DNA of 64,000 nt from a virus. Taxonomy: Duplodnaviria > Caudoviricetes. Both the position numbers and the translations under genes were made by a program. Below the pieces are notes generated by a model. The model was not told the DNA's origin and did no database searches. It saw only the letters and a list, made by a program, of their open reading frames with translations. This document shows, piece after piece, positions 1 through 56,918 of this stretch. The stretch spans positions 175,692 through 239,691 of IMG/VR virus record IMGVR_UViG_3300020576_002947. One strand, given 5' to 3'. Position 1 is the first letter of the stretch. The number at the start of each line of letters is the position of its first letter.

Positions 1-1971
1 AATAGAAAGGGTTTAATGGACTACGCAAAGAATCTATTAAACAGGGCCTTAAATGAGAACGACAAAGAAGCAGAGATTAAATTTAAAAGACTAGTCACTG
101 GTGGGTTTATGAGGTCTTATGCAGGACAAAGTTTTGAAAGAAAATTCAATGCAGCTGTTGCATCAGTAGCAGGAGAACTAGCACACCAAACGACACTAAC
201 TGTTCAACCAGGTGGAGGAGTAGGTTTAGGTATAAATCAAAATTCTGATGTATGGAGCAGAGGTTCTATTACTATAACAAACGAGTATGGTGATATTGTT
301 GATGAACGAGACTTAGCTGATGGTATTATTATAGCACAGAAGTGGTTAAACTTAAGAATAGGTAGTAAAAAATCAGGACCACTAAATGCTGCGGCAAGAG
401 CATTCCTCTACGATCCGACCAAACCATCGTCTGTTGCAGATAAAAGAGGTAGTAAAATATCTAGCCAGGCTATTGCTGGCGTAGAAATAAAAGCTACGGT
501 AGCTTACTTTATGCCAGATACTTTTCTTCAAGAACAGGGTGATGATCTTACTAAAAAGATTTTCAAAGGTAACGCAGATGAGTGGTTTGAGCACTTTTAT
601 TTAACACTGGCTGAAGACAAATCAGGTACTTACGAAGATCTATCCAATAAACAGAAGTTTCAGGGACAGGGCGAGCTTTTTCTTACCCCTGCAGGTGCAG
701 CTAAAGTTAAAGCTCAACAAAAACTTAAAGCTGGAAAACTGATTGAGTACGAAGGAATACCACCTATGAAAGATCAGTTAAGTAGAAAAGCCCAAATGTT
801 TTACGGCAAATGGTATTATGTTCTTAGCGAAGAAGAGTTAGTTTCTGACGCTAAACTTGTAAATACTGCTGGCTGGTTAAAAGCTATGCCAATAGGAATT
901 ACAACTCAGTATACCATGAATCCTACTGGTGGCGGTGCAAAGCAAAACATTGATATGATGATAAGTCTTGGTGAGGTTTTTGCTAAATCCACAGGAATTA
1001 ATCAACTACTTATCCACCATGCCAATGAGCTAGGATTAACGTCAGAAGAAGTTAAAACCAAAATGGAAAAACATAGGGCTAACTTCCAAAAAGCTGTTAG
1101 CACTGGTGATGATAAAGCCTTAAAAGGTCATATTACTGCAATGCTTGAGGACTTTGGATTAATGAAAGAAGAGGTAGAAGAAATAGATGAACAAGGGGTA
1201 GTAAGAAAAGCATCAGCTTGGGTTTTTGGCAAGCGTGATGAACGGGGTAATGCTGCGTTAGCGGATACCACAGTAATCTCACTTACAAATGTTGCAGAAC
1301 ACCTAGTAGCAAGAGAAACTTGGGATGAGAACTTGCAACGCTTAGTTATAAAAGGTGCTGAGTCAACCCAAGTTATGAAAGGAGGTTTAATGAGCCAGGA
1401 TGTAATCAATAAAATCTTTGGTGATGGTGCTGTTAAAGCATTTGACCTTTTCTCAGTACTTGGACGTGATGGTGAGGAAGGTTTAATAAAGAGCTTCGCA
1501 AGAGAGCTTAATCCTGGTGTGGTAACACTTACTGATAATATGATTGCACAGGCACGGCAAACACTGCAGGTTGGGTTTGTTGCAGTTGCTCAGCAGGAGT
1601 ACACGGGAGCTGCGGAAAAGGCTACTGAGCACCTAAGATCGCAGCTAGGCCTATTAATGGATGCTAGACTTGAAATTCTTGATGCTATTAGTGGGGGTCA
1701 GATTATACAGGGCTTAGGTAGTATCAAAAAAGAAACTCACCAGCTACAAGCAATAGCCCATAGCATAGGCCTAGCAAGTCAAGCACAAAAACTTGGTACT
1801 ATAGGTAAAGAATTAGAGGGCAAATCTGAAAACATGCTCCACTATCTAATGAAGAGTACTCCTGCTAATGGTAAGCTAGCAATAGCTATGGCCGCCACAG
1901 CAGCAACTGCTACAGCCTTTGCGATGAGAGGAAGAGTACAGGCTAAAAGAGAAGAAGCTCGTACCAGGTAG
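1..1971 (+). CDS. C-terminal part of a large protein with RNA polymerase beta-like (DPBB-B) motifs; candidate virion RNAP, probably 5'-truncated by the window
   Basis: Frame is open from base 1 (aat aga aag ggt tta ATG). Motifs GQGELFLTPAG, AKLVNTAGWLKAM and NIDMMISLGEV align in order with GGQMFMTSEG, PKILSPIGLKNM and PDFLLSLKEI of ORF 35845-38247. Confidence 0.5.
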   Translation, partial: NRKGLMDYAKNLLNRALNENDKEAEIKFKRLVTGGFMRSYAGQSFERKFNAAVASVAGELAHQTTLTVQPGGGVGLGINQNSDVWSRGSITITNEYGDIVDERDLADGIIIAQKWLNLRIGSKKSGPLNAAARAFLYDPTKPSSVADKRGSKISSQAIAGVEIKATVAYFMPDTFLQEQGDDLTKKIFKGNADEWFEHFYLTLAEDKSGTYEDLSNKQKFQGQGELFLTPAGAAKVKAQQKLKAGKLIEYEGIPPMKDQLSRKAQMFYGKWYYVLSEEELVSDAKLVNTAGWLKAMPIGITTQYTMNPTGGGAKQNIDMMISLGEVFAKSTGINQLLIHHANELGLTSEEVKTKMEKHRANFQKAVSTGDDKALKGHITAMLEDFGLMKEEVEEIDEQGVVRKASAWVFGKRDERGNAALADTTVISLTNVAEHLVARETWDENLQRLVIKGAESTQVMKGGLMSQDVINKIFGDGAVKAFDLFSVLGRDGEEGLIKSFARELNPGVVTLTDNMIAQARQTLQVGFVAVAQQEYTGAAEKATEHLRSQLGLLMDARLEILDAISGGQIIQGLGSIKKETHQLQAIAHSIGLASQAQKLGTIGKELEGKSENMLHYLMKSTPANGKLAIAMAATAATATAFAMRGRVQAKREEARTR

Positions 1972-23698: not shown

Positions 23699-23844
23699 TG
23701 TTGGCCGTGTTCCTGCTGCTGGTAGGGTTCGGAATGATTGGTTATGGAGCATTCCTCCAGACCATCAATGAGATCAAGAATTCCTGAGATTGTTGCGGCT
23801 ATTTGCGTAGTCGTAGTTCTCTTGGGAGTGTTGTGGAGATAACC

Positions 23845-25098
23845 ATGAATCAATTCGAGATTCAAGCACAGAAGATCGTCAACAAGGTCTTCCCTAAGGT
23901 CATTTGTGGTGAGAAGGCCTCTGATCATCTGAGACAGATCATCGAGACCAAGCTGGCTAATGGGAGGCAAGTTACTCTGAGCATCAAACACTCAGATCAT
24001 CAGAAGGCTCTCAGTAGCATTACTGGAGTTCCCTGTGTTGAGGGCTTCAGAATCAAGGACCGCCAGGTTTGGGTCGGCTATGAAGTTAAGCAAAGGCCTT
24101 TTACAGATGCAGATTGTTCTGCACCAAGACTTCGCGTGCATTCTGATGAAGATGGGTATCCTTACGTCTATCGTCTGGAGTGGGTAACTGTGAATCAGAA
24201 GCTTCTTCCTGAGATGCTGGAGGTGGTAACTGATTCAGCTTCTAAAGGACAGAAGACAAGGTTTGGTGTTGTCCAGTCAGGGATGAAGGCTAAGTCGGCT
24301 AACATGGTCGAGTATCATGTTGATACCAAGCACATGGAACGCCTGGGTATTGATATCTTCAGGGATCTGATGACAGGTCCTGGTGGGATGTATTTGGTCT
24401 ACAAATGGTCTCTGGTTAACCAAATGCTTCAAAAGTTTGAGGCTCATTTGGCAATCCATGAGGATCATGAGGCTATCATGAACCACCCAGAACTGCCTGA
24501 CTTTCGAAGAAAGATTAGGGCAATGCTTGGAAAGATGGGCAAGCCTGCGTTTATTTATCACAGGATGTCAATTGGATCGGCTAGTCATAGAGGTATTGAC
24601 CATGCCGACTCACTTGACTACCTGACACTCAATCAAGTGAAGACTATTCCAACGTTTGAGAGAATGTTGGAGATTGGTGCTCAGATCGAAGCTGATGAAA
24701 AGGCTAGGAGAGAGGCATTGAGATACAAGGCTCCTGCATCACCACCTAAAATGTGGGAAGACGATAGCCTGAAGGTGAAACTTCTTCGCCCAGGAATTGA
24801 GTTCATTGTCGAAGGAAGGGAAATGCACCACTGTGTTGGCGGATACAGTGGATTTAACTCCATCATTCTCGGCGTTGAGATTTATGGTGTTCGTGCCACA
24901 GTTGAGCTGAATCGTACAGGAGACATTCGCCAACTAAGAGGCGTCTGCAACGAAGGCCTTCCAATGGAAAGCCAATTCCTTTTCCGAGACTGGCTTAAGA
25001 ACAATCTCAAAGAAGTTCTTGAAACAGTGGAGAATGAGGACTACTACAGTAGTGATCACACTGCTATCGTTGTAGACAACGACCCATTCGCCTGGTAA
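23845..25098 (+). CDS. PcfJ-like domain protein
   Basis: EGREMHHCVGGY...RATVE...QLRGVCN; start placed at ATG after GGAG. Confidence 0.8.
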   Translation: MNQFEIQAQKIVNKVFPKVICGEKASDHLRQIIETKLANGRQVTLSIKHSDHQKALSSITGVPCVEGFRIKDRQVWVGYEVKQRPFTDADCSAPRLRVHSDEDGYPYVYRLEWVTVNQKLLPEMLEVVTDSASKGQKTRFGVVQSGMKAKSANMVEYHVDTKHMERLGIDIFRDLMTGPGGMYLVYKWSLVNQMLQKFEAHLAIHEDHEAIMNHPELPDFRRKIRAMLGKMGKPAFIYHRMSIGSASHRGIDHADSLDYLTLNQVKTIPTFERMLEIGAQIEADEKARREALRYKAPASPPKMWEDDSLKVKLLRPGIEFIVEGREMHHCVGGYSGFNSIILGVEIYGVRATVELNRTGDIRQLRGVCNEGLPMESQFLFRDWLKNNLKEVLETVENEDYYSSDHTAIVVDNDPFAW

Positions 25099-25127
25099 GG
25101 CTATACGACTAAGAACTGGAGTAAAAA

Positions 25128-25681
25128 ATGAACTATCACATGTTCAATGAGCCATCTCTTAAGGAGATGAACAGCTTCCGCCATATGGTGGATGAGGATG
25201 CAATGCTGGCTGAGCACGCAGCCTATGACTCTCACGATGGTGTGACTTTCGGATGCAATGCTGATCCGCAAGAGCCTACCACAGACGAGTGGAATGATGT
25301 CCACACACAGAGAGTTGTTGCAAGAGCACTCGCTGCTCAAAGACATCCTTACATGGCCTACCTCAGAGCCACAGGGCCAGCGTAATGAGAGACTTGTTCT
25401 TTGACTCAGTCCTGGCTGAAAGAAGGGCTACTAAAAGCCTTCTTACGTCAGAAGAACTAGAAGACATTAAGCTACAGAAGGAGGCTGTGGCTGCTCTCAG
25501 AGCAAGAAGAAGACTTCTTCGACAGAGAGAAAAGGAGACTAAAGCGTTGGAAGATGCTTTGGAACTCCTTGATGCTAAGGATGCAATGATTGCGTCTATG
25601 GGCATTCACGGATGGAGGTTTAGACATCTTGGATATGAGGTTGAGGTGTCTGAGAAAGGGTATAGCTTGAAATGGAATTAA
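25128..25681 (+). CDS. two hypothetical proteins (25128-25385, 25385-25681)
   Basis: Translationally coupled ORFs (TAATG). Confidence 0.7.
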
Positions 25682-25834
25682 AACTGCAAGCTGATCGGAA
25701 GCTCTTGGTCACCAAGCTTAAGACTCTTCAGTCGAAAGGCAAGTGGAAAGACTGGGATGCTATCAACAGGACGACCCAGAAGATCAATGAGATCGACTGG
25801 GAACTCCAGCGACTAAGTAAGAAGGGGGAAGATA

Positions 25835-26833
25835 ATGAAAGTTAAGACTCCGTGTGGTCGAGAGGTCACTATCGTCAACATCAAGGACACTCCAAACTGG
25901 AAGGAGTTGTATCCTAATGGTGTGTACTGTGGCAGACCTCCTAAGAGTCAGCCTGGTATGCACCTTGGGAACTTGTTTACCCATTTGCAGCTGGATGATC
26001 CGTCAAGGACTATCTGGGTGCCAACCAGGGAAGTTGCTGTCCAAGCCTTTGAGAGATGGCTCAAGGGTGACTACGATCCTATGTGGCCGCTTGCTAAGTT
26101 GGCTGCTGAGGAACAACGCCGTCTATGGATTCTGAAGGTGATCCCTAAGATCCAGGAGAAGGCTGAGGCATTGGCATGTTGGTGTGATCCACTAATGTGC
26201 CACACTGAGGTACTTGCTACCTTTGTGCCCACGACAGCCCCTACGACTACCACACAGGTGTTCTACACTGGTGTTGGTACCAGAGGCAGGCAAGGCTTCG
26301 ATGGTGTAAGAAGACTTCCTCAACATATGACAAACCTTATTCGTAGGGTGTCAAGATGGAAGAGGGATAAAGGAGAGATCCTCAGATCAGGTCATGCTGT
26401 TGGATCTGATCTAGCATTTGAGATGGACACTCCTGTTTGGCAGAAGGAGATCTATTTGCCAACAGAGGTATTCAACAAGGCCAGTGCATCTACCCCAGGA
26501 TGTATTGTGCCTGATGAAGAACAGTTGGAAGAAGCCTTTGACTTCCTTCAGAGGATCGGTGTGCTTGAACCAAGACATGCTGCTAAACTAAAGTCAGGAA
26601 CAGGCTTTGGTTGGAGAGCCCATGCTAGGAACCTATTCCAGGTTATTGGTGTGGACATCGAGAATCCACGTCCATCCAAATCTCTGTACTGCTACACAGA
26701 GGATGGAGAAGAAGTGGGTGGAACTCGTACGGCTATATTGGTCGCACGACACTTTGATGTCAAGGTGATTAACCTAGGTAATAAGGATGTTGCTGCCAAA
26801 TGTGGTCATTGGCTGGAGAAGAATGGATACTAA
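25835..26833 (+). CDS. DUF4326 domain fused to SLOG/DprA-like domain
   Basis: N-half VYCGRP..LGNLF..LACWCDPLMCHTEVL; Thr-rich linker; C-half YTGVGTR, LRSGHAVGSDLAFE, ARN..QVIG, GGTRTAI. Confidence 0.8.
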   Translation: MKVKTPCGREVTIVNIKDTPNWKELYPNGVYCGRPPKSQPGMHLGNLFTHLQLDDPSRTIWVPTREVAVQAFERWLKGDYDPMWPLAKLAAEEQRRLWILKVIPKIQEKAEALACWCDPLMCHTEVLATFVPTTAPTTTTQVFYTGVGTRGRQGFDGVRRLPQHMTNLIRRVSRWKRDKGEILRSGHAVGSDLAFEMDTPVWQKEIYLPTEVFNKASASTPGCIVPDEEQLEEAFDFLQRIGVLEPRHAAKLKSGTGFGWRAHARNLFQVIGVDIENPRPSKSLYCYTEDGEEVGGTRTAILVARHFDVKVINLGNKDVAAKCGHWLEKNGY

Positions 26834-35431: not shown

Positions 35432-35854
35432 ATGGGTTACGCATTTTTAGGAAGCGCTTTCGTTTTATCTTGGCTGTTTGCCTATTTTGAATTGTTATTG
35501 GTTACCAAACTAAATCTTAAAGGCCTTGCCTTAAACCTTCCACTATTTGATTTCTTTTTCTCAATCCCTATCGCAATTTTGCTAGGTATTGGCTTTAATA
35601 TTAATGGTGCTGTAGCTGGAATGGCTATGACACTTGCATCATTCTGGACTCTGTTCTGGTATGCTCATTGGAAGCGTAAGGAATTCAACAGATTCTATGA
35701 TGGCAAGAAGCATAAGCTATGGAAATCTACGCTTGCAAAGGAACTCGACAAGATCAGGAATGATATTGAAGAGGGAACATTTATTGGTCAAATTTTAATA
35801 GATCAGCTTAAGGAAAAGGAAGCCAAGTTGAAGAAGGAGCTTAAGTGCAAGTAA
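35432..35854 (+). CDS. membrane protein
   Basis: Three hydrophobic segments. Confidence 0.65.
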   Translation: MGYAFLGSAFVLSWLFAYFELLLVTKLNLKGLALNLPLFDFFFSIPIAILLGIGFNINGAVAGMAMTLASFWTLFWYAHWKRKEFNRFYDGKKHKLWKSTLAKELDKIRNDIEEGTFIGQILIDQLKEKEAKLKKELKCK

Positions 35855-38247
35855 ATTATCAAGAGTATGAATGGTATGGACAACCTGTTGTCATTCCGTT
35901 CAGAGTTATTGGTGAGAAATCTGTTATTGGCAAGGATGGTAAAGTGTCAAACGTTAAGCAGATCAACGAAGGAATCAAAGCGGCAGCAGACCGTGAAGAT
36001 TTCCCTAAGTTGATTGATATGCTTGAGGACCAATACTTTAAGACATTGAGAATGGTCACTGGTATTCCTGTTAAAGGACACTATGGACCTGTCTTTACAT
36101 CTGCAGACATTGCACCTGAGTATTACTTCACAACTCCAGAAGGAGGAACAGTAGTTAATGAAGATCTTATGACTTCCAGAGCTGTTGACAGTGATGGAGA
36201 TCATGCTCTAAGATCTAATCTAAAAGATGCAAATGGAAAATACTTTAAGCATAGGGAAGCTATGTTTATTAAGTTTCCATTTACTAAGAAGGTTCCTGTT
36301 CTTAAGGAACTTCCTGGTAAGTATCCATATACAACTTTCACACCTGTCCCAGAGGACAAGGAAATCGTTATTACTGATATGTCTGAGAAGTACAATCTTG
36401 ATGCTCTAGTTGAAAAAGCTAAAGATGTTCTTGCTATGCCGCTTGTCGGACCAACTGACAACTACTTTGATTATAAGGAAGCAATGGCCGTTAAGGATCT
36501 TGATTCCTATCATATGAAAGTCCAACATCTGTTTGAAGACGAAGACAGATTTCTTGCTATGGAGGGAGATATGAAAAAGGTTCGCGGAGGGAAGATGGAG
36601 AAAGTCGAAATCCCCCGAAGGCGAAGCATTGGGACACTTCCTACATGTTGGATTTTGGGTATGGCTAGGGGCAAGTCCTATTCACTACTTCCAGAAATTA
36701 AAGATGCTATCTATATGATGAGGTATCTTGAAGGTATGGAATTTGAAACAGTCGAATCAGCGCTCTCTCGAAGAGACGATGAGGTGTTCCCCATTCCTAA
36801 GAAACTCGAGATCAATTCTAAAGGGCACGGCATTGTTCAAAGACTTATTGATCTCAAACTTCTAACCATTGAGAAGATTCCACATGCAGTCCCAGGACTG
36901 TTTGTATCTGTTATTAGATTGTATACTCCTAGTAAAGATTACAGAACTCTTCACCCAGTTGCTGTTACAGAAACTAAGAGAGACACTTCTGTTATGACTT
37001 ACTGTATCGTAGTATCACCAATCGTGGTTAACTATGATAATCAGGTTAAGATTGTTCCTATTGAGTACGCTCTTGAAGCTCATCTCAATTCAGTTATGAC
37101 ATTTATGCCACTATCAGGGGGCCATTGGCCTAGTCGATTGGATCATATCCACCAGAACCCTGTTAAGTCAGCTATGCTTGAGAAAGCTCTTAGAGAATTT
37201 CTCAGTAAGTATGGCTACTTCCTATATCATAATAAGACTATGAAGACAATGGCACTAGCCGTTGCTAAGAATAAGATTGCTGTCCATTTCCAAACTAAGA
37301 ATCCACATGAGAAAGCTGCTTTCATGAAAGAGCTGAACATCAAGCTTAAAGCTACCAAGCTGGCTATTGTTCCATGTGGTGGAAACAAGAAAGGAACTGA
37401 ACGTGCAAACTTCAGTATTTGTGATCCTGTAACATTCTCGCCATTGTATGCGGGCAAGTACGCTGATCCAAAGCGTTCATGTCAGATTGCTTCTCAGCTT
37501 GCTAACGCTGTACCCCTACCCAGAAAGGCTTGTCTTGTTATTACAGGACGACCAGAAGATGGGAAGGGCACTGGCGGTCAGATGTTTATGACATCAGAGG
37601 GCGCTGAACTAAGCAAACTATCTAACGTGTTTCTAAACTCATTGGTCTATCAGAAAGATGAGAATCATCAGCAACGAACAACATTCAGAAACTTTGCTGG
37701 AGAGGAATTTGAAGGCTGGCTTGGAGACCCTCAAGCGACTTCTGAAATCCCTAAAATCCTCAGCCCAATCGGACTGAAGAACATGGCTATGAGAATCTAT
37801 AATAAGATTCAAGTACAGCATAATGGATTTTGGTTTGAACCTGATTTCCTGTTATCTCTGAAAGAGATTGAGGATAAGGATGCTTGGAATTCTCTTGTTG
37901 AGCATGGTGTCGAGAGATCATTCATGAACAACAATGGAGAAATTATTCCATGCTTCATCGTTTTCATAAACCTATATCGTTCTACTAATGCTTCAGAATG
38001 TGTCAAACCAGGTAAGAAGACCAGAGTGGTCTCAGGCATGGAAGCACATGCAATTAAGGAAGTTCTTTTAAATCATAATCTTGAGATTCCAGAATCAGAG
38101 CCTGACATGGAATATCTTGAAGCTATCAGAAAGGCAGTAGCGCAGATCAGAGATATCTGCAACCTGCCATTGCCCAATGTACCGGACGGCTTGTGTGCTG
38201 TTCGGGGGGCGGCGGTGGGTTCGGCGGAGGGTGCTGTCCCCTTGTAG
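35845..38247 (+). CDS. candidate single-chain two-barrel RNA polymerase (800 aa)
   Basis: AVDSDGD (36187-36201) resembles NADFDGD; C-terminal K-x7-K, PDFLLS and SGMEAHA motifs resemble beta GDK..GNKG, PDI.LNP and GEMEVWA; GTG start after AAGGAG. Confidence 0.6.
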   Translation: MQVNYQEYEWYGQPVVIPFRVIGEKSVIGKDGKVSNVKQINEGIKAAADREDFPKLIDMLEDQYFKTLRMVTGIPVKGHYGPVFTSADIAPEYYFTTPEGGTVVNEDLMTSRAVDSDGDHALRSNLKDANGKYFKHREAMFIKFPFTKKVPVLKELPGKYPYTTFTPVPEDKEIVITDMSEKYNLDALVEKAKDVLAMPLVGPTDNYFDYKEAMAVKDLDSYHMKVQHLFEDEDRFLAMEGDMKKVRGGKMEKVEIPRRRSIGTLPTCWILGMARGKSYSLLPEIKDAIYMMRYLEGMEFETVESALSRRDDEVFPIPKKLEINSKGHGIVQRLIDLKLLTIEKIPHAVPGLFVSVIRLYTPSKDYRTLHPVAVTETKRDTSVMTYCIVVSPIVVNYDNQVKIVPIEYALEAHLNSVMTFMPLSGGHWPSRLDHIHQNPVKSAMLEKALREFLSKYGYFLYHNKTMKTMALAVAKNKIAVHFQTKNPHEKAAFMKELNIKLKATKLAIVPCGGNKKGTERANFSICDPVTFSPLYAGKYADPKRSCQIASQLANAVPLPRKACLVITGRPEDGKGTGGQMFMTSEGAELSKLSNVFLNSLVYQKDENHQQRTTFRNFAGEEFEGWLGDPQATSEIPKILSPIGLKNMAMRIYNKIQVQHNGFWFEPDFLLSLKEIEDKDAWNSLVEHGVERSFMNNNGEIIPCFIVFINLYRSTNASECVKPGKKTRVVSGMEAHAIKEVLLNHNLEIPESEPDMEYLEAIRKAVAQIRDICNLPLPNVPDGLCAVRGAAVGSAEGAVPL

Positions 38248-38652: not shown

Positions 38653-39321
38653 ATGAGCGCAATCAAAGCCTCACTATTCACTGCCGCTATCGTTGCATCA
38701 TCAGTTTTCGACTTCCTGTCAACGAGTGAAAACGCACAAGCGTTCAAGCTCGAGGATGACCATCGGAAATTGGTTATTGAAGACGCTGACATTCCGGTGC
38801 CAGCTGGTTCTCGTCGAAAGACGAAGGATGTTATGGCGACCCATGCAGTCGTCTCACTTGCGAAGATCAAGTCTCAGAACTTGGTCACGCTAAAAGCCGT
38901 CGCTGAGGGCGGCAATCACGACACGTACTACCGTGTCAATGTTGAGTTCTATGACGCCACTATTCCCGAAGAAGCCAAGATGCTCGGATCGGTTGAGGTC
39001 TGGGGTTACAACCCCAAACGGCCCAATCAGCTCGAGATTCGTGGCGGCGTTGGCCTCCCTAAGAAGGAGAGGTCCTCGGGTGATGGCAATACAAGCACAG
39101 GCTTGTATACCGATGATACCAAGCAGCCTGTCTGGACACAGGCAATGGTTCAACGCTTTATTGTGAATGCTATGACTGTCATTGCTGAGCAGAACCCCTC
39201 ACTGGCTAAGGCCATGATTGAGGTTTGGGAATCTCAGCAGGTCCCTGAGCCCGAACAGGTGAAAGAGGAAGACACGGTCGAACAACTGGCCGCGCTTGAC
39301 ACCGAATTTGCCGCTCCATAG
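38653..39321 (+). CDS. hypothetical protein with acidic C-tail (possible ssDNA-binding protein)
   Basis: GC-richer codon usage, acidic C-terminus; function speculative. Confidence 0.6.
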   Translation: MSAIKASLFTAAIVASSVFDFLSTSENAQAFKLEDDHRKLVIEDADIPVPAGSRRKTKDVMATHAVVSLAKIKSQNLVTLKAVAEGGNHDTYYRVNVEFYDATIPEEAKMLGSVEVWGYNPKRPNQLEIRGGVGLPKKERSSGDGNTSTGLYTDDTKQPVWTQAMVQRFIVNAMTVIAEQNPSLAKAMIEVWESQQVPEPEQVKEEDTVEQLAALDTEFAAP

Positions 39322-39327
39322 CAACTA

Positions 39328-39362
39328 GGGGGTATGGTTGAAAGACCATATCCCCTTTTTTT
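39328..39362 (+). terminator. rho-independent terminator
   Basis: ggggtatggt-tgaaag-accatatcccc followed by T-tract. Confidence 0.85.
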
Positions 39363-39487
39363 ATTAGCTTCGCCTAGATATTTTGCTAGTGTTTGATAGT
39401 ATTTTGCTACAATTTACTAGCCTAAATGGGCTATATCCCTATTCTACGTATGTCTACTATTCAGAAAAAACATTAAACCATTTGGTG

Positions 39488-39516
39488 TAGACAAAAGGTT
39501 CTAAGTCTACTATAAA
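39488..39516 (+). promoter_or_regulatory. sigma70-like promoter upstream of the ncRNA region
   Basis: TAGACA-17 nt-TATAAA, overlapped by GTAGAC/GTCTAC inverted repeats. Confidence 0.45.
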
Positions 39517-39947
39517 AGCAGTAGACACAATTTTATATAGTTAAAAGGGTAACATAAATCCTCAAAAGTATGTCCGTTAAGGACGGAAAAAAGGATAAAA
39601 GACGTTCTGTCTATCCCATGAGTAAAACCGAATATCGTGCTTTCAGAGCTACCTGGAACAGAAGTCCTCAGTGTGCTTCACGCTGAACAAACTTTCTAAC
39701 TTTCACGTAAAGTTTCTACCTTTTAGGCCCTGGCCTTAATAGAGCGCTCTTGGTCTCAATGTGAAAAGGAGTTGAGGCCCTAACTTTTTTATTCGTCCAT
39801 GACACCGTCAGGTGGTAAACCAACCGGATAATTAGACAGCGCCGAGCTTCCCGTACTGTCTACACGGACGCGTTATAAGGGGGTCGTTGGACTCGCAGCC
39901 TTTTCTCGACAGTTTAGGTTTGTAGACTTTCAGCGGGCCCCCTTATT

Positions 39948-40454
39948 TCAATTTGCCGGCTAGAGCAAAGGTATGGAGAAATCCATAAGCGGAGGTATGT
40001 TCACACATAGCCTAAGCCAAGCACCAGCTTTCTAAGGGTCATGTAAGTGGCCTTGATAACCCTGGTATGGTAGCATAGTGAAAGTAAAGTTACCGCCATT
40101 TTTAGTTCCATGACTTCTCGTAAGGGAAGGTAAAACACAAAGATTATAAAAGGTCTTTGTGAAAAACTTGTTGAAAGCAGCACTCGCAAGAGGCATTGCT
40201 ATAGACAAGGTAATTAAGTCATAAGCATCGCTCTTGGCTTGCACGGAATCGTTTTGATTTCCCTGTAAAGGGAATTGGACACACTCGAACAGCACTAAGT
40301 ACGTCCTGTAAAAGGGATACTCCTGGTGGGAAATAGGGTTGCGAAAGCATGCAGGGATGTGTCCCAGTGGGCTGATCTAACACTGAGCTGAATAGAGTAC
40401 TCATTCAGTAAGATCTGTTGTCAGGCATTCGTGTCGCACAACAGAAAAACTTGA
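39948..40454 (+). ncRNA. ROOL-like large ornate RNA
   Basis: ORF-poor, GNRA-rich; blocks ctaagccaagcac, gaaagtaaagttaccgccatttttagttc, gaaggtaaaac, ctatagacaag..aagtcataa, gtaaaggg, gcgaaag, agtgggctgatctaac..agctgaat occur in the order I recall for ROOL RNAs; near tRNAs. Confidence 0.7.
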
Positions 40455-40949
40455 TCGTCTTCTTGAATGTAATGGTGTAATAGAAACACACTCTGGTAAC
40501 AGAGAGTATACTAAGATGCAACTTCTTGGTACTGAGAGAAGACTTTTTTTGGACTGGATATGAAGAAATTGATACTCGCTACCCTCATAAGGTAGATAGA
40601 AGACAAACTAGGAAGGTCCAAACTTTTTTCTATGTAGTGGGTGGGAGCCCCGCGGGAGGGAGTTCCCTCTTTGTCCGAGAAGGCGTGCATAGAACCCAAT
40701 TTCCGTACGGAACACCTCGGGGCAGATAGCCCTTGGGACGGAAGTGCGTAGACGTAGTACCAAGACCTACGAAATCAAAACTTGGACCCTGCTGGGTTGG
40801 AGGTTGGTTCTGATCTGGTTCTCCATGGCATGAGGGTCCTTTAATTAGGACCCTTCAACTCTGTTAAAAAGAGTATCCTCAGGACCCTGGCACAGTCCTT
40901 TCCAGCTAAGCTAACTGAGGACAATCTTAGATAGGACGGTATTTTTGCT

Positions 40950-41558
40950 TTGAGCGAAAGACTCCCAACACCCTTACCTTTCTTTATTACATCCCTTATG
41001 GTTCCTGGTATCCTACTTTCACTTGCAGGCGGGCATTTTGCTTTAAAGCATACTATAAGAACTGAGTCTGTTACCATAACTGAGAAGAAAGCTATTGGTC
41101 CAGAAAGATTTATCTATGGTAAGAACTCTAATAATGAACTTGTTGTGATGACTGTAACCAACAATTGGTTACTCTTTCAAACAAATGCTAATAGTCTTTA
41201 TGATAAGCTACAAGTTTCTAAAACATACAACCTAGAAGTAGCAGGTTATATGAGTATTAAGTCTCTTATCAATATAAAATAATTAGTAATTAAGGTTATT
41301 ATGAAGGACCATTTTTATTTTGGTCATTTCAGGACAGAAGTAAGTTATGGACAGCTAAAACCTGAAGACATTCATGGCTACTTCAGAGGCCTAATGGTAG
41401 GTTTTTGGTGTTTCTCTTATATAAGAGAAGGTCGAGTTCTTGTAGGCACTCGTGGCAAAACATACCAGAGTGCTAGACTAGATGCTTTTGACGAATATAT
41501 TAAAACTTGTAATTTTTATAGAGTTTCTCCATCTGTTACAAGAGAGGAAATCGAATAA
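40950..41558 (+). CDS. two hypothetical proteins (40950-41282 with TM + beta domain; 41301-41558)
   Basis: ORF track. Confidence 0.65.
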
Positions 41559-41564
41559 GTACAA

Positions 41565-41874
41565 GGGCCTGTAGCTCAGTGGTTAGAGCACGCGGTTCAT
41601 CAAAGCTCCACACACTTTCCTTTTATTAGGTGTGTGATAGCAGGTGCCACAAGATTGGAAACTACTTGTGGGATCTCTCCTGTTCAGGAAAACCTAAGGA
41701 TCAATAAGGATAGATCTATGGCAATCGTGAGTACTTTGTAAAGAGTATGCAGAGACTGTACGGAGAGGGCCTAAACTCAGTAATGAGTACGGTCAAGAGA
41801 CAGTCCAGGGAGTCAGGAAACTGACACAAACCTGAACCGCATGGTCGTGGGTTCGATCCCCACCGGGCCCACCA
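41565..41874 (+). tRNA. trnI: tRNA-Ile2/Met (CAT) with group I intron; exons 41565-41600 and 41835-41874
   Basis: gggcctgtagctcagtggttagagca-cgcgg-ttCAT | aa-ccgca..ggttcgatcc..cgggcccACCA; body resembles tRNA-Ile. Confidence 0.9.
41601..41834 (+). mobile_element. group I intron (234 nt, no ORF)
   Basis: Exon ends in U, intron ends in G; P7 elements gcagagactgtac and aagagacagtcc. Confidence 0.88.
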
Positions 41875-44801: not shown

Positions 44802-44875
44802 GGGAGGTTAGCTCAGTGGTAGAGCAACGCACTTTTAATGCGTGGGTCACGGGTTCGAGCCCCGTACCTCCTACC
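44802..44875 (+). tRNA. trnK: tRNA-Lys (TTT)
   Basis: gggaggt/acctcct acceptor, acgca-ctTTTaa-tgcgt anticodon arm, ggttcgag T arm, encoded CCA. Confidence 0.92.
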
Positions 44876-45146
44876 AAGTTTCAAGGAATCTAATATGGAA
44901 ACACAAGAGCATACCCTTCTAACAGCTTTAAAATCTTGGATATCAGCTATAGCAACCCAGAAACATTGGATTATTGCTGATCTTCACATTCATTTTGCTG
45001 CTGCTGATTTCCTTGATGAGCATTTAGATGATCTTTACGATATTCCTATAAAACATTGGCCTAAAGTAGTTGGTATTGAATACGATGGAGACCAACTAAT
45101 TATTACATGGCTTAAAACTAATTAACATCTTAGGGGAAGCAGCATC

Positions 45147-45713
45147 ATGGTGGATGTAGAAAAAATTCTTATTGATAAAAAGCCAGATTTTTTAAAAATT
45201 GCTAGTAATATTGGAAGGTTCTATAGTCTGGACTCAGATGACATTCAAGATATTTATCAAGAAACTTGTATCAAGATATGGAATACAAGAGATCGTATCA
45301 ACGAAGATAGTACTATTGAAAACTATTTCAGCCGTATCTGTGGTAGGGTAGCTCTTGATATTATTAGATATCGTAAGTATGTAAAAGAGAACAATCTAAG
45401 GCTAGTTAACGACTTTAATCAAGGATCTTTTGAACTGGCTCGCTTTGTTGGTACAGATCATTGTCCATCAAACGGTTTTATATACTCAGGAGTTCGCTTT
45501 GTTCAAGAAAAAGAGCTTGATGCTATTTTCAGAGAACTAACCACGAAGGAAAGAATTGTTTTTACCCATCTGAAAGAAGAAAGAACTGCTGTAGAACTAT
45601 CAAAAGTGTTAAAACTTACCACTAGTGGCACAAAAAACAGGATCTATGACCTTAGAGAATTCTTTAAAAGAAGACTAAGTTGTCCTGTTAATGAACTTAT
45701 TTTCGAAATATGA
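45147..45713 (+). CDS. ECF-type sigma factor-like protein
   Basis: DIQDIYQETCIKIW region-2 pattern; LTTKERIVF...ELSKVL.LT..GTKNRI region-4 HTH. Confidence 0.8.
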   Translation: MVDVEKILIDKKPDFLKIASNIGRFYSLDSDDIQDIYQETCIKIWNTRDRINEDSTIENYFSRICGRVALDIIRYRKYVKENNLRLVNDFNQGSFELARFVGTDHCPSNGFIYSGVRFVQEKELDAIFRELTTKERIVFTHLKEERTAVELSKVLKLTTSGTKNRIYDLREFFKRRLSCPVNELIFEI

Positions 45714-45725
45714 AAGCGAAGGAAG

Positions 45726-46016
45726 ATGAGTACCATATCTCCAACCGAATATCATATTGTGGTAAAGAAGTTTGGTGATCTGTGTTATGCAGAAGCACCT
45801 CATCTAAATAATAAGGATATTATAGGGGTTGGTGCAACAAAAGAGGAGGCAAAAGCTGACATATTGGCCCAAATACCTATCTATATTAGACTTTGTGAAT
45901 CTAAAGGCATCCAATATGGACTACCTTTACACCTAAGACCTGAAGAACAGATGAGTGCTGAAGACCTAGACTCAAATGCTGATGAGTTTTGGGGTGATCA
46001 TTTCAACGATGAGTAG
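45726..46016 (+). CDS. HicB-like antitoxin domain protein
   Basis: YAEAPHL...IGVGATKEEAKADI..I..YI. Confidence 0.65.
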   Translation: MSTISPTEYHIVVKKFGDLCYAEAPHLNNKDIIGVGATKEEAKADILAQIPIYIRLCESKGIQYGLPLHLRPEEQMSAEDLDSNADEFWGDHFNDE

Positions 46017-46060
46017 GATAAACCAAAAATAGGTTTGACTGTCTCGTAGTCAGAAAGGTT

Positions 46061-46675
46061 ATGGAAAACTTTGATGATTTTTATTATTCAAATAAAAGTG
46101 TTTTAAGGAGCATTGCCCTTAAAGTATGGAATAAACTTCCTTCAACAGTACAGAACTTTGATAAAGCAGTCGATTTTGATGATTACTTTCAAAGATGTTT
46201 AATAAGTCTTAGTAAAGCAGATATCAAATCGGACTCTGAAACTAGTCTAGGCTATTGGAAGACTACTTGTATCACTAAGATTATCGATCTAGTTAGAAAG
46301 AACAAACGACAGCACGAAAAAGATCTTGAATTATTCGATGCGGTTAAACTTAGTAATCCTGCTATTTACCCGATTGTGGATTTAGAGGATTCAAATGACA
46401 AGGATTTCAAGAACTTGCTAAAAGAGAACTACTTTACATTGTTAAGAAAGCAACCAGTAGATGACTCTCTTTCTTGTAAAATAGAAGAAGCGTTAAACTC
46501 TTTAAAAAGTCAGAACAAGACTCTATATGATACACTAATAAGTTATCTTGATAATGAGTTCTACTCTACACCATCAGACCTTAATCCAACAACAAAAAAG
46601 GTCAGAGTGTTTAGAGCTAAAAAACTTCTAAGAGATTGTTATGAAATGCAAGAGAAACTTGTATATTCTAAATAG
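46061..46675 (+). CDS. second, more divergent sigma factor-like protein
   Basis: DDYFQRCLISL, KIIDLVRK, IEEALNSL, TKKVRVFRAKKLLR. Confidence 0.65.
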   Translation: MENFDDFYYSNKSVLRSIALKVWNKLPSTVQNFDKAVDFDDYFQRCLISLSKADIKSDSETSLGYWKTTCITKIIDLVRKNKRQHEKDLELFDAVKLSNPAIYPIVDLEDSNDKDFKNLLKENYFTLLRKQPVDDSLSCKIEEALNSLKSQNKTLYDTLISYLDNEFYSTPSDLNPTTKKVRVFRAKKLLRDCYEMQEKLVYSK

Positions 46676-46684
46676 ATGGTACTT

Positions 46685-46733
46685 GGGCGGTTAGCTCAGT
46701 AAATAGCAAGTACAAATCCTCGGGTGGCGCCCA
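46685..46733 (+). pseudogene. decayed tRNA (Val-like 5' end)
   Basis: gggcggttagctcagt ... tacaaatcct ... cgccca. Confidence 0.45.
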
Positions 46734-46764
46734 GTCCGGCCAAAGGTACCTTATAAAAAAATAT

Positions 46765-46841
46765 CCTCCCATAGCTCAACGGTAGAGCAGTGCTGTTACA
46801 TAGCAAAGGTTAGTCGAGTTCAAATCTCCTTGGGAGGACCA
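46765..46841 (+). tRNA. trnV: tRNA-Val (TAC), imperfect T stem, possibly pseudo
   Basis: cctccca/tgggagg acceptor, gctc/gagc D arm, tgct-gtTACat-agca, gttcaaatc, ACCA. Confidence 0.6.
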
Positions 46842-46844
46842 AAC

Positions 46845-47063
46845 TTATTCTTCGTATCCTTTAAAGGATCTAAGATATCTATTTCTCTTAGTATCTTTCT
46901 TCTGCTTTGATGTAAAAGTATCAGTTTGTGTATGACAATTGGGGCATAATAGACGTAAGTTTTCTGGAAAGTTATTATCGGAATTACCGTCTATATGATC
47001 TAGTTGCAAGATTAAAGGCAACTCATTCCAAATAGTATTCTGACCACAGATTGAACAACATTC
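46845..47063 (-). pseudogene. 5'-truncated HNH endonuclease remnant (not in ORF track)
   Basis: Translates ECCSICGQNTIWNELPLILQLDHIDGNSDNNFPENLRLLCPNCHTQTDTF...YEE*; no upstream start; paralog of 49055-49675. Confidence 0.85.
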
Positions 47064-47189
47064 CTGATTATAATAGTTTTTAATTATGGATTAGAATATA
47101 ATGATGAAGGTACTTTAATTTATAGAGACCATGCATTTATTACTGAGCACAGTTCTTCTGGTAATGGTGGTGAGAAACTTGTTTGTGTA

Positions 47190-47432
47190 ATGCCTTTGAA
47201 TAGTGATAATCTTAACATAGATCCACCAGCTTATCTTGTTAAGCTTCACGAGCTTCTCCTACCCTTCATTTTGGAGTACATTGTTAGCTCTAAAAAGGAA
47301 ATTGAAGATTTCTCACAAAAAGTGGAGAAAGAAGAAAAGGAAGCACGTATTCATGACATTGATATTAAACTTAAAGAAGCTAAAGCAATAGTAAAAAGGC
47401 TTCAGAAAGAACTTAATCAAGCTCAGGCTTAG
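47190..47432 (+). CDS. hypothetical coiled-coil protein, possibly 5'-truncated
   Basis: Frame stays open upstream to about the HNH remnant junction. Confidence 0.55.
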   Translation: MPLNSDNLNIDPPAYLVKLHELLLPFILEYIVSSKKEIEDFSQKVEKEEKEARIHDIDIKLKEAKAIVKRLQKELNQAQA

Positions 47433-47483
47433 ACTATAACAAACAACGTGCCCGGATGGCGGAATGGCAGACGCAGCGGACTT

Positions 47484-48215
47484 TTAAAATTCTACACATT
47501 TTGCACTAATTAACTGAGTCTACCTATTACATTATAGGTATGGAACAGTTGATATGCAAAGTATGTGGAAGCCCTAGAAAGAAAGGTAGGCGCTTATGCA
47601 GTAAATGCAACAGCGATAGAATGGCTCAATATCCCAGATATACTTGGGAGAAAGAATGTGTGGCTTGTAAAGAGGTTTTCTCGGCTCTTAGAAAACGATC
47701 TATTCTATGTCCTGATTGTTATAAACAGTCTAGGAAAAAAGAGGACTTGTCCTCAAATAACTACGTACCAGGGAAACCTAATAAACGTGGTCATAGAATA
47801 ATCGCAGAAAAGATCTTGGGAAGAATCTTAAGCTATAACGAAGTTGTTCACCACCTAAATGAAGATCCAAAAGATAACTCTGTAGACAACCTTTGGGTAA
47901 TGTCAAGGAGAGATCATGCAAGACTTCATTCTTTTCTAGAGTTACAAAGAGTCATATGGGAGAAATCCTATACGGAGAAGAGTGTAAATTGCTGGAATAT
48001 CGTTAGAGTCTTGCAAACTACAGCATGGTTGGAAACAACGGGTGCGAAAGTTCTAAAATTGCAAGAATTCGACAATCAGCAGCCAAGCCCCTAAGGAGAA
48101 ATCTATGGGGAAGGTTCAGAGACTATACACACTCAACCCAAACGTGTAATGACGTGGGTTATGATATAGTCCAGCGCACAACTTGCAAGAGGATCGTGAA
48201 AGCGATAGTGTGATG
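47484..48215 (+). mobile_element. group I intron (732 nt) carrying an HNH endonuclease ORF
   Basis: P1 gactt/gagtc with U-G at splice site; aattgctggaa, aatcagcagcc, gttcagagactatac, atgatatagtcc; terminal G. Confidence 0.92.
47540..48094 (+). CDS. intron-encoded HNH homing endonuclease
   Basis: CxxC Zn motifs; HRIIAEKILGR..EVVHHLNEDPKDNSVDNLWVM..H; C-terminus reads into intron core. Confidence 0.9.
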   Translation: MEQLICKVCGSPRKKGRRLCSKCNSDRMAQYPRYTWEKECVACKEVFSALRKRSILCPDCYKQSRKKEDLSSNNYVPGKPNKRGHRIIAEKILGRILSYNEVVHHLNEDPKDNSVDNLWVMSRRDHARLHSFLELQRVIWEKSYTEKSVNCWNIVRVLQTTAWLETTGAKVLKLQEFDNQQPSP

Positions 48216-48285
48216 AAACTCCGCAGCCACTTGTGGCATGGGGGTTCGAGTCCCCCTCTGGGCACCACAACTTTAAGGAGAAACA

Positions 48286-48807
48286 ATGACTGATCCTCAA
48301 TTTCAGGAAATTCAGCAAAGACTTAATGCCCTAACAAACTTAGTTACTTCTCTTGTAGCTGTCAATCCATTTCTATCGGGTGCTACAACAGTCTCCCAAC
48401 TGGTAAATAATGAGATTACCGTAAGTACACATTTAGAACTTCCAATAGGTACCTTGTTTACCAAGGTTCTTGAAAAAGAGAAGGTCTCACTTAAACCAGG
48501 ATTTGTTAGGGATCTATCTGTTGCAGTAGCTACTGACCATGATCTTCTCTATATTAAGCTTACCGATACTATTTGCTTAGTGTGGAATAAGAGGTGGTTA
48601 ACACAAATTGCTTATAAAGATTTAGATAGCACAACTTTTTCCTTTATCAGACCAGACAATATTTGTCTTGTAAGATCTAGTGAGAACAATGAAATTCCTA
48701 GAGTCCCTGAAGAAGTGTACCAAAATCTCTTTAAAGCTCTTATGGTCTTCTTTAAAGAAACTGGAAGAAACTATACAGAGGCTATTCCCTCTTATGAGAT
48801 TTCTTAG
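48286..48807 (+). CDS. hypothetical protein
   Basis: AAGGAG SD, 173 aa. Confidence 0.75.
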   Translation: MTDPQFQEIQQRLNALTNLVTSLVAVNPFLSGATTVSQLVNNEITVSTHLELPIGTLFTKVLEKEKVSLKPGFVRDLSVAVATDHDLLYIKLTDTICLVWNKRWLTQIAYKDLDSTTFSFIRPDNICLVRSSENNEIPRVPEEVYQNLFKALMVFFKETGRNYTEAIPSYEIS

Positions 48808-49014
48808 ATGAGTAGTATGTCTATAGTATTATTTAATAAGGAACAGATCATGTCAAAAAACACAGACAATCTTGTTAAAGAAATTCAAACTGAAATTAAG
48901 TCTTGTGGTTGGAAAGAAGAAGTAGACTCTAAAAGAGGTCCATCTAGTCACCAAATGTTAATAGTTCCTGTTTAAAGTAGTTTTTTCCTTGTTATTTATT
49001 AGCTAAAAAAAATT

Positions 49015-49040
49015 TGCCTCTTCGTCTAAGGGTAGGACAC
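49015..49040 (+). pseudogene. 5' half of split outer tRNA (Gln-like)
   Basis: tgcctct-tc-gtc-taagggtag-gac; acceptor strand pairs with agaggca at 49717-49723. Confidence 0.75.
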
Positions 49041-49048
49041 AAAGTTGT

Positions 49049-49119
49049 TGCCTCTTAGTGAAATGGTACCACGCCTGCCTTTGGTGCAGGAGTTTCAGGT
49101 TCGAGTCCTGGAGAGGCAA
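49049..49119 (+). tRNA. trnQ: tRNA-Gln (TTG), nested, no encoded CCA
   Basis: tgcctct/agaggca, gtg/cac D arm, cctgc-ctTTGgt-gcagg, tcagg-ttcgagt-cctgg. Confidence 0.85.
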
Positions 49120-49675
49120 CAACTTTAACCTTTCTTTTAGTATTCTTACCACAGAAAGTATCAGTTTGGCTATGACAGTTAGGACATAAAAGCTCCAAAT
49201 TCTCTAGGCGATTATCTGTCTTAATACCATTCTTATGCTCCAACTGTAATACAAGAGGCTTATCTCTCCAAATAGGGTCAGTACCACACCCTGCACATTG
49301 ATTTAGCAATAGACCTTCTTTAAGTAAGCGTCTTTTCAGATAACCTCTGCTAGTTTGAGGTCTATCTATAACTAGTAGTTCTTCTATTGGAATAGGCTCT
49401 TTCTTTATTAGAATCAAATCTCCTCTTTTAGTAGCTTTTTCAATGGACCTTTTGGAAATGCCACAAGATGTAGCAGTAGTTCTAATAGATTGAAGATCGT
49501 TATAAATACTTTGAATTTCGCACCAATTAAGAACTTTTGCGACAGGCCTACTTAGTACATCTTTAGATGTACAAATCCAAGCTATTGTAGATTTAGGTAT
49601 CTTAGTAATATGGGAAATCTTCCCATAACTCTTTCCCTCTTTCCTCAGCTTAAGAACTACATCTCTACTATGCAT
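49055..49675 (-). CDS. HTH-HNH endonuclease, antisense to tRNAs
   Basis: Start MHSRDVV; HTH GKSYGKIS..IPKSTI; CAGCG..LQLEHKNG..DNRLENLELLCPNCHSQT; C-terminus reads antisense through tRNA-Gln. Confidence 0.9.
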   Translation of the reverse strand: MHSRDVVLKLRKEGKSYGKISHITKIPKSTIAWICTSKDVLSRPVAKVLNWCEIQSIYNDLQSIRTTATSCGISKRSIEKATKRGDLILIKKEPIPIEELLVIDRPQTSRGYLKRRLLKEGLLLNQCAGCGTDPIWRDKPLVLQLEHKNGIKTDNRLENLELLCPNCHSQTDTFCGKNTKRKVKVVASPGLEPETPAPKAGVVPFH

Positions 49676-52860: not shown

Positions 52861-54381
52861 ATGGGACTTTTTGGATTTGTTAAAGACGTTCTAGTAGATG
52901 GACTTGGAGGGTCTAATGTCGTATGGGCTATTGGTTCTCAAGCTATTAAATCAAAACTTCCACAATGGAAAGAAATGGGCTATGAAGAAAAGCCTAAGTT
53001 TGGAATTCTTAAAGGTCTTAACCAGTTTTATTATGATCTTCCAGTAATTAATCAACCTAGATCAGTACCTGCTAAAATTGAACTGCACGAAGCTAAAAGA
53101 GCTGGCACTCATCTTGACTTTAGATTTAAAGTAGATGGCCGTGTTTATGATTTTGCTGTTGTTAAAACAGACATTTTCCCAGAAAAGACTGGTATCGTAC
53201 AGAGAGTTGTAAGAAGACATAACCACTCTCTTAAGTATTTTGATAAGGAATCTTTTGTCTTCCCAGAAGGATCATATGGAGAAGGCAAGATGAAAACTAT
53301 CTGGAGAGGTGATATTGATATCATCGAAATGTCACCAGAAAAGATGGAATTCAGTATCAATGAAGGTAAATTCCAGGGTCGTTATTGTATCTTTACTGAA
53401 AAGTCTCCCATTCTTAATGAGGCTGCAGGAATGATACGTATGAAAGACCCTGTTTTGATTCATAAAGACAGATCTAAATTCTCATCTGATCCAAAGAAGC
53501 TTGAAGTTGCTTATGGAGACCCTGATACTATTTCTGAGTGGAAAGTTGATGGAGCTAACTATACTCTAAGATCTGGTGATAAACCAGGAACTAATCAATT
53601 GATTAGTAGAAGACTTTCAGTAACAGGAGAACCAATTAACCAGGTGGATAAGCTTCCTAGCCTGAAGTTTTATAAGATTCCTGATAAATTTAAAAACAGA
53701 GCTATCCATGGAGAAGTATCCACAACCTACGAAAATGTTGCTAAGACAGCAGGAACCTTAAACAGTAATTCAACTAGATCTAGAAACCTTCAAAGTACTG
53801 GAAAGTATGGTGATAGGCTTGTTTTCAATGTTTGGGATATTGAAGGAGAGGGTACATATGAAGAACGTAGTCTCGAACTTCGTGAATTAGCTAAAAGCTC
53901 TCCTAGAATTGATAATAGATATTTTGGTGACAGAAGAGACCAGTTCTGGTTTAGAAGAATCACAAACCCACGAGTTATTGCTCCTGTTGCAAACAACAGA
54001 GACCTAAAATGCTCTCCTAAGGAATTTACTGATTTGGTTAAGCAAGTAGGAGGAGAAGGAACTGTTCTTAAGAACCTTAAAGCTAAATACTATGAAGATA
54101 CTTGGCTAAAAGATAAAGCTTCTGACACACACACTCTTAAGATTATTAATTTTAAAGAAGGTAATGAGAAGTATACTGGAAGTCTAGGCGCTCTTATTGT
54201 TGAATCAGATGATGGTACTATCAAAGGTACCGTTGGAACAGGATTCAGTGACGAACTTAGACAGAATATCTGGGATAACAGAGAAGATTTAAAAGGTTCT
54301 TATATTGAAGCAGAGTGTCATGAAGTGACAGAAAATGGTGTTCTAAGAGGACCCAGATTTAAAGAATTCAGTCGGGGTTAA
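52861..54381 (+). CDS. ATP-dependent DNA ligase with N-terminal LigD 3'-phosphoesterase domain
   Basis: HEAKRAGTHLDFRF..HSLKY..EGSYGEG (PE); EWKVDG, HGE, FNVWD, EGTVLK, WLKDK; OB fold VGTGFSDE..LRGPRF. Confidence 0.9.
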   Translation: MGLFGFVKDVLVDGLGGSNVVWAIGSQAIKSKLPQWKEMGYEEKPKFGILKGLNQFYYDLPVINQPRSVPAKIELHEAKRAGTHLDFRFKVDGRVYDFAVVKTDIFPEKTGIVQRVVRRHNHSLKYFDKESFVFPEGSYGEGKMKTIWRGDIDIIEMSPEKMEFSINEGKFQGRYCIFTEKSPILNEAAGMIRMKDPVLIHKDRSKFSSDPKKLEVAYGDPDTISEWKVDGANYTLRSGDKPGTNQLISRRLSVTGEPINQVDKLPSLKFYKIPDKFKNRAIHGEVSTTYENVAKTAGTLNSNSTRSRNLQSTGKYGDRLVFNVWDIEGEGTYEERSLELRELAKSSPRIDNRYFGDRRDQFWFRRITNPRVIAPVANNRDLKCSPKEFTDLVKQVGGEGTVLKNLKAKYYEDTWLKDKASDTHTLKIINFKEGNEKYTGSLGALIVESDDGTIKGTVGTGFSDELRQNIWDNREDLKGSYIEAECHEVTENGVLRGPRFKEFSRG

Positions 54382-54383
54382 TT

Positions 54384-56724: not shown

Positions 56725-56918
56725 CACGGGAACAATTTAAAACAGTGCTTATAGGTACACAAATGATAAGTAATCTAAATACAGAAGTTATTGTTTTAGG
56801 CCATACTCCTAAAGGTATTAGACTCAATATTATTACTGCAAAAGGAAGAATTGATATTGTTCCTTATTCATTCCATAAACATTGGAGAATAGATTATAGA
56901 ATTCCTGTTTGTATATGA
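56721..56918 (+). CDS. ~65-aa SH3-like paralog ending in VCI
   Basis: MTREQFKTVLIG...RIPVCI. Confidence 0.75.
   Translation: MTREQFKTVLIGTQMISNLNTEVIVLGHTPKGIRLNIITAKGRIDIVPYSFHKHWRIDYRIPVCI

Follow-up and report, generated by a model that had tools for sequence, protein, structure and literature searches.

A jumbo phage protein that is very probably a single-chain two-barrel RNA polymerase with its β′-like part first

An 800-residue protein of an uncultured jumbo tailed phage very probably belongs to the same ancient class of RNA polymerases as the cellular enzyme; it is built as one chain in which the β′-like part comes before the β-like part. We are highly confident that the protein is an active two-barrel polymerase of some kind, and its narrower assignment as a non-virion DNA-dependent RNA polymerase is likely, the non-virion role being drawn from the position of the gene. 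The gene lies in a 64-kb window, the whole stretch of DNA analysed here, which is the final part of a 239,691-bp source record. Terminase, portal and major head genes are present elsewhere in the source genome.

The gene and its protein family

The first-pass annotation had called an 800-residue reading frame at 35845-38247, with DSDGD at 36187-36201, GGQMF at 37573, PKIL at 37750, PDFLL at 37840 and SGMEAHA at 38032; the gene and all of these motifs are present at exactly these positions. The plus-strand frame begins with GTG, and its start overlaps the stop of the upstream gene. The predicted parts of the protein and the features around the gene are collected in Table 1.

Searches of Pfam, PHROG and PDB sequences with the 800-residue protein returned no match, and a YopM match was rejected as a repeat artefact. 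A word-indexed homolog search found only the protein itself, and an exhaustive search found 48 metagenomic relatives. The family alignment has 47 full-length rows of 743-997 residues with 18% mean column identity, and identity to the query is mostly only 17-25%. A profile of the family matched no PDB sequence, and none of the 47 members matched a polymerase family in Pfam. No cultured member is known, since a tblastn search with two family members found nothing in 50,697 phage records.

Conservation of DSDGD in homologs had been set beforehand as a point on which the polymerase reading could be refuted, and D115, D117 and D119 are present in 47/47 rows. K143, P145, G202, E240, R544, K637, K645, K678 and R712 are among the other invariant residues. 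DxDGD arises in 0.66% of shuffles of the protein, so its occurrence is above chance. The invariance of three aspartates and three lysines across 47 sequences at this mean column identity argues for catalytic constraint. The chain order D-triad, K143, E240, K637, K645, K678, R712 is the same in every aligned row (47/47), and a DxDxD downstream of the lysine barrel occurs in just one row. The proposal of a two-barrel polymerase with the β′-like part first is supported by this conservation, by the modelled structure of the β half and by a docking model that sets the Asp loop against the two lysines.

Table 1. Positions of the polymerase gene, its predicted parts, and neighbouring and related features (window coordinates unless a genome coordinate is given; G000 is the source genome)
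Feature	Position	Strand	Basis or remark
Predicted single-chain two-barrel polymerase gene (800 aa), β′-like part first	35845..38247	+	Homolog search, alignment, model
Shine-Dalgarno-like AAGGAG, 5 nt 5′ of GTG	35834..35839	+	Sequence; alignment to the closest homolog begins at residue 6-7
N-terminal hairpins and helices, aa 1-72	35845..36060	+	DSSP
Apparently rewired catalytic barrel, DPBB-A-like, aa 79-155: b1-b2-b5-(DxDGD)-b6-b3(KxP), possible b4 at aa 152-155	36079..36309	+	
DSDGD, predicted metal-binding triad D115/D117/D119	36187..36201	+	47/47 invariant; E. coli β′ 444-471 maps here, z 6.6
Putative displaced b3 strand, invariant K143-x-P145, counterpart of β′ R425-x-P	36256..36279	+	Best placement of the split paralogue's canonical R-x-P strand, z 5.1
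Bridge-helix-like helix, aa 201-216, invariant G202	36445..36492	+	Model, profile
Trigger-loop-base-like helix, aa 233-248	36541..36588	+	E240 invariant; R235 and K244 in 43/47
Reduced β N-terminal and lobe region, aa 322-554	36808..37506	+	Model alignment to E. coli β
Two-lysine barrel DPBB-B, aa 555-715	37507..37989	+	K637 (37753), K645 (37777), K678 (37876)
C-terminal strand and helices, aa 723-772	38011..38160	+	DSSP; aa 721-730 within modelled interface with N-terminal barrel
Upstream 140-aa membrane-like gene	35432..35854	+	Also upstream of closest homolog (E 2e-7 to gene upstream of L005 homolog)
Downstream 222-aa gene, acidic tail	38653..39321	+	Homolog follows closest relative
Strong intrinsic-terminator-like hairpin, 13 bp and T run, closing gene block	39327..39366	+	
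1552-aa paralogue	G000:C1:173004-177662; C-terminal part = window 1..1971	+	Same order; candidate virion RNA polymerase
Split pair, 368-aa β′-like then 457-aa β-like ORF	G000:C1:42825-45513 (L010:4825-7513), outside window		Adjoins ATPase and DnaB-like helicase genes

The C-terminal half is modelled as a counterpart of β

An AlphaFold2 model of the protein had a pLDDT of 87 and a pTM of 0.86. All 50 of the 50 PDB matches listed by Foldseek are second-largest subunits (Rpb2/β chains). The best Z score, 11.9, was given by the alignment of aa 324-723 with E. coli β 47-1243 (rmsd 4.6, 318 residues aligned), and isolated double-psi barrels match aa 555-715 of the model over 80-88 residues. The best placement of E. 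coli β 1061-1076 is aa 633-648 (z 4.3), which puts K637 and K645 on K1065 and K1073; these two invariant lysines are spaced 8-9 residues apart across the family. Only the second-best placement aligns E. coli β R1106 with K678. The model supports aa ~322-730 as the counterpart of β, made up of lobes and the lysine barrel.

The acid of the β ED/DG motif is not conserved in the family alignment. The annotation had doubted the acidic residue before the GGQ strand, and its loss is confirmed: no conserved acid precedes the Q579 strand. A split β paralogue in the same genome keeps an invariant aspartate at this position. Equating SGMEAHA with GEME found no support in the profile test; the match is positional only, and the family consensus there is G-x-D/E. 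The E. coli GEME, link-region, ED, bridge and trigger segments gave no sequence mapping onto the family.

The N-terminal half carries an apparently rewired catalytic barrel

The likeness of the N-terminal part to β′/Rpb1 is clear in sequence, with E. coli β′ 444-471 placed at aa 99-126, and weak in structure (Z about 4). Four largest-subunit (Rpb1/A′) chains align to the N-half barrel and two helices over 104-134 residues at Z 4.0-4.1, which is weak and within the background range. Residues 1-300 folded alone gave no Foldseek match at E<0.001, and the matches were dominated by helical hairpins; this lack of a fold match is no evidence for another fold. The suggested check by structure prediction and Foldseek came out in favour of the β half, where all listed PDB matches are Rpb2/β, but not of the N half alone. 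The two double-psi barrels expected in the predicted fold divide in the same way: the barrel at aa 555-715 was recovered, while plain DPBB domains align first to last strand onto aa 76-128 with only ~50 residues (rmsd 1.8-2.9, Z 2.4-3.7).

The claim of a DxDGD barrel stands for the triad, but the barrel does not appear to be a canonical six-strand sequential one: its K-x-P strand comes after the triad, and one of the strands could not be placed. Strand b1 lies 30-38 residues before the triad in the 800-residue family versus 86-125 in the canonical split paralogue, and the b2-to-b5 gap is only 5-11 residues. The best position for the split paralogue's canonical R-x-P strand is aa 136-147, after the triad, where K143-x-P145 is invariant (47/47 members). 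Strand b4 had no profile placement in the family, and aa 152-155 are a candidate. The catalytic barrel appears to run b1-b2-b5-triad-b6-b3 and so to be internally rearranged, an order inferred from sequence placements, not traced. The helices at aa 201-216 and 233-248 stand at the expected place of the bridge helix and the trigger-loop base and match the profile of the split paralogue, and we infer that they are the equivalents of these elements. Small helical structure matches cover both termini of the model, and aa 1-72 and the C-terminal helix probably pack against each other in a clamp-like module.

A published survey of two-barrel enzymes filtered for [RK]xP 20-100 residues before DxDxD (PMC10770324, Supplementary Data 4). 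The 800-residue query fails this filter and 18/47 members pass it, apparently through non-conserved triplets; only 5/47 have an [RK]xP-type triplet inside the barrel before the triad. Such enzymes can escape standard searches.

The two halves are predicted to form one active site

Residues 70-255 and 500-730 were folded as separate chains and docked. The docking score was 0.78 compared to 0.00 for the best control, and the docking mark used was reached by 58/80 solved pairs and 2/110 mismatched pairs. The runs share at least 61% of contacts with a partner pLDDT of at least 58, and the docked interface includes residues 117-120, 637 and 645-647. This pass may reflect likeness to solved polymerases. 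The model supports the geometry, with the Asp loop against K637/K645, and does not speak to activity.

In the proposed mechanism, the N-terminal ~300 residues would act as β′, with the Asp triad binding catalytic Mg2+ and followed by the bridge-helix-like and trigger-loop-like helices. The two halves would fold back so that both barrels form one active site, where K637, K645 and K678 would hold RNA and NTP phosphates and K143 would take the place of β′ R425.

Genome context and paralogues

The 800-residue gene is at the end of a series of small genes on one strand, which closes two genes later at the strong terminator. The gene and its homologs lie amid small non-structural genes in similar neighbourhoods; the 800-residue gene itself stands outside the morphogenesis block. 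For the genes of 216-316 residues downstream of distant members, no homology was established.

Two further DxDGD proteins are encoded in the source genome, in frames of 1552 and 368 residues. The 1552-residue protein matches the family profile (E 5.8e-5) with the same order and a K-x-P after the triad, and a 1260-residue counterpart (E 8e-10) is encoded in a 235-kb relative (G001). The 1552-residue frame sits amid virion genes, on the opposite strand, and only one close homolog of it was found. The 368-residue protein is the β′-like member of a split pair, which has a canonical barrel in 17/17 relatives. The split β′-then-β gene order recurs in four other genomes with a gap or a small ORF between the genes. 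Profiles of the pair match the two halves of the 800-residue family modestly (probability 37%, E 3.6e-4; probability 86%, E 5e-6). The split gene led to two IMG/VR relatives, both of which also encode a member of the 800-residue family, and G001 has the same trio of 800-residue family, split pair and long paralogue. The G001 family member (L018:710-3228) is in two ORFs of 213 and 593 residues, in different frames and 95 nt apart. The break falls between the bridge-like and trigger-like helices, and both ATGs have similar upstream context; the gene may be split naturally or may only look so through an assembly error.

No enriched intergenic (phage-specific) promoter motif was found, and sigma-70-like sites were at chance level. 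The window encodes a 188-residue sigma-70 region 2 protein (45147-45713), with no match to sigma region 4 anywhere in the source genome. Since the genome encodes this sigma-like factor, much of the transcription may fall to the host polymerase; the factor is odd next to three phage polymerases. The phage also encodes its own 1196-residue DNA polymerase.

Several other features of the genome were recorded. About 1.6 kb past the terminator (39360-40950) holds no convincing gene, several hairpins and no Rfam match, and a hairpin like a tRNA 3′ end, not called as a tRNA, lies at 41847-41874. Genes for tRNA-Lys, -Val and -Gln fall within 44802-49120, and amid them an HNH endonuclease ORF (47540-48189) overlaps a group I intron match (47924-48189). 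A 3499-residue protein without a Pfam or PHROG match is encoded on the minus strand at 3952-14451, and a second giant protein of 3257 residues at C1:125896-135669. A DNA ligase with a LigD phosphoesterase domain, a TROVE/Ro60 protein, two PcfJ-like proteins and a DprA-like protein are encoded within 52861-61358 and 23803-26833.

Function and origin

Made after infection, the 800-residue polymerase would serve the phage as a non-virion enzyme. By analogy with P23-45 and YonO, the long paralogue would probably be injected, and the 800-residue enzyme made afterwards would transcribe a further gene class. The points against this best explanation are the lost acidic residue, the weak fold match of the N half, the missing promoter motif, the sigma factor and the split gene in G001. 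A two-barrel polymerase with another job, such as QDE-1-like RNA synthesis on RNA or single-stranded templates, priming, or PolD-like DNA synthesis, is unlikely. In its favour, these activities are all covered by the two-barrel fold family (PMC10770324, PMC7281927), lysine replaces the β′ arginine at K143, the β acid is lost, and a genome with three two-barrel sets and a sigma factor could afford specialised enzymes. The best structure matches, however, are DNA-dependent β/Rpb2 chains including the lobe regions, with QDE-1/RDR2 lower (Z 4.6-5.0), and the phage has its separate DNA polymerase. Putative bridge- and trigger-like helices are present, both of which elements are listed for RNA polymerases, and beyond the barrels nothing is shared between RNA polymerases and PolD (PMC10770324). 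PolD is absent among the structure matches listed for the model, and β-like lobes are present in it. Slightly less probable still is an RNA polymerase that is carried in the virion or that acts ahead of replication: a small compact enzyme could be ejected, but this gene is not part of the morphogenesis block. Inside that block is the longer paralogue of the same order (1552 residues; 1260 in G001), which fits a virion role better. A catalytically dead polymerase relic, with binding of nucleic acid or of host factors as its role, is very improbable. The rearranged barrel with its unplaced strand, the lost acid and the split G001 gene could be read in this way, but the invariant aspartates and lysines have the pattern of catalytic constraint.

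Whatever the function, the simplest origin of the reversed order is fusion of a β′-then-β gene pair, which we consider probable. The split pair is homologous to both halves, which suggests that they were fused in gene order. Circular permutation of an ancestral β-then-β′ single chain is a distinctly weaker candidate. In the models the N- and C-terminal elements are neighbours, as permutation through the connector would give, and the profile matches that tie the family to the split pair are modest; adjacent termini are also expected after fusion, and the unfused β′-then-β pair with its canonical barrel is present in the source genome and four relatives. The full picture, in which three two-barrel polymerases and a sigma factor serve this uncultured jumbo-phage lineage and two of them are active β′-first rewired single chains derived from the split pair that is still carried, has in our estimate an even chance of being right.

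Comparison with known polymerases

In the papers searched, the single-chain two-barrel polymerases all have the same chain order and the same barrel wiring. A family that departs from both, and is conserved, would mean that the active site tolerates rewiring. If true, nature demonstrates here that catalysis survives changes both in the order of the subunits and in the strand order of a universally conserved catalytic barrel. The fuse-or-split question for two-barrel enzymes becomes directly testable in a genome that carries both fused and unfused relatives, and an 800-residue monomer is a simple system for the minimal core of cell-type transcription. No reversed-order single-chain two-barrel enzyme was found in the openly accessible literature searched, and an earlier description is possible.

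The β subunits of cellular and phiKZ/AR9 multisubunit enzymes are the best structure match for aa 322-725 (Z 8.7-11.9) and have the same two-lysine spacing. Unlike these enzymes, the 800-residue protein is one chain, lacks the ED acid and has a catalytic barrel that appears rearranged. The crAss-like phi14:2 gp66 (PDB 6VR4; Z 5.5 to the model) and eukaryotic QDE-1/RDR2 also have two barrels in one chain. In enzymes of the gp66/QDE-1 type a ~140-residue connector, lying ahead of the catalytic motif, links the barrels (bioRxiv 2020.03.07.982082), whereas the 800-residue family has ~390-510 residues between the trigger helix and the lysine barrel, in the opposite order.

The top viral structure match (E 3.5e-5) is ME3_309 with ME3_307 of Acinetobacter phage ME3 (KU935715), annotated as hypothetical. 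The lysine-barrel motifs resemble those of the 800-residue protein by eye, but the ME3 protein is β-first, has a canonical R-x-P before DxDGD and is interrupted by an endonuclease-like gene. ME3_309 was rejected as a cultured family member, being β-first with no significant profile match. ME3 genes 309 and 307 (L008:7115-11850 = KU935715:222114-226849) look like one β-first two-barrel RNA polymerase, and the endonuclease-like gene 308 between them is probably an intron.

YonO is a β-first enzyme. Encoded by the Bacillus prophage SPbeta, it is a ~100-kDa single-chain, DNA-dependent, Asp-triad-dependent non-virion enzyme similar in size to the 800-residue protein (PMC5467207), which unlike YonO has no Pfam or PHROG match. 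The Thermus phage P23-45 enzymes gp64 (non-virion) and gp96 (virion) are also small single-chain two-barrel enzymes (PMC10770324; PDB 8F72, and 8F5M for P74-26 gp62), and the virion enzyme transcribes the gene of the non-virion one (PMC10770324). The source phage resembles P23-45 in having two related paralogues, one in the virion block and one outside, and gp64/gp96-type structures give a weak echo of the N half (Z 3.4-3.9). The described single-chain order is DPBB-B, connector, DPBB-A, with DPBB-A well conserved in the P23-45 enzymes (PMC10770324); the 800-residue family has the reverse order in 47/47 members. Unlike P23-45, the source phage also has a third, split enzyme, and K-x-P follows the triad in the 800-residue protein. 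The 800-residue protein would work in the way that YonO and gp64 do, but with both its chain order and its strand order different it is not a member of their families.
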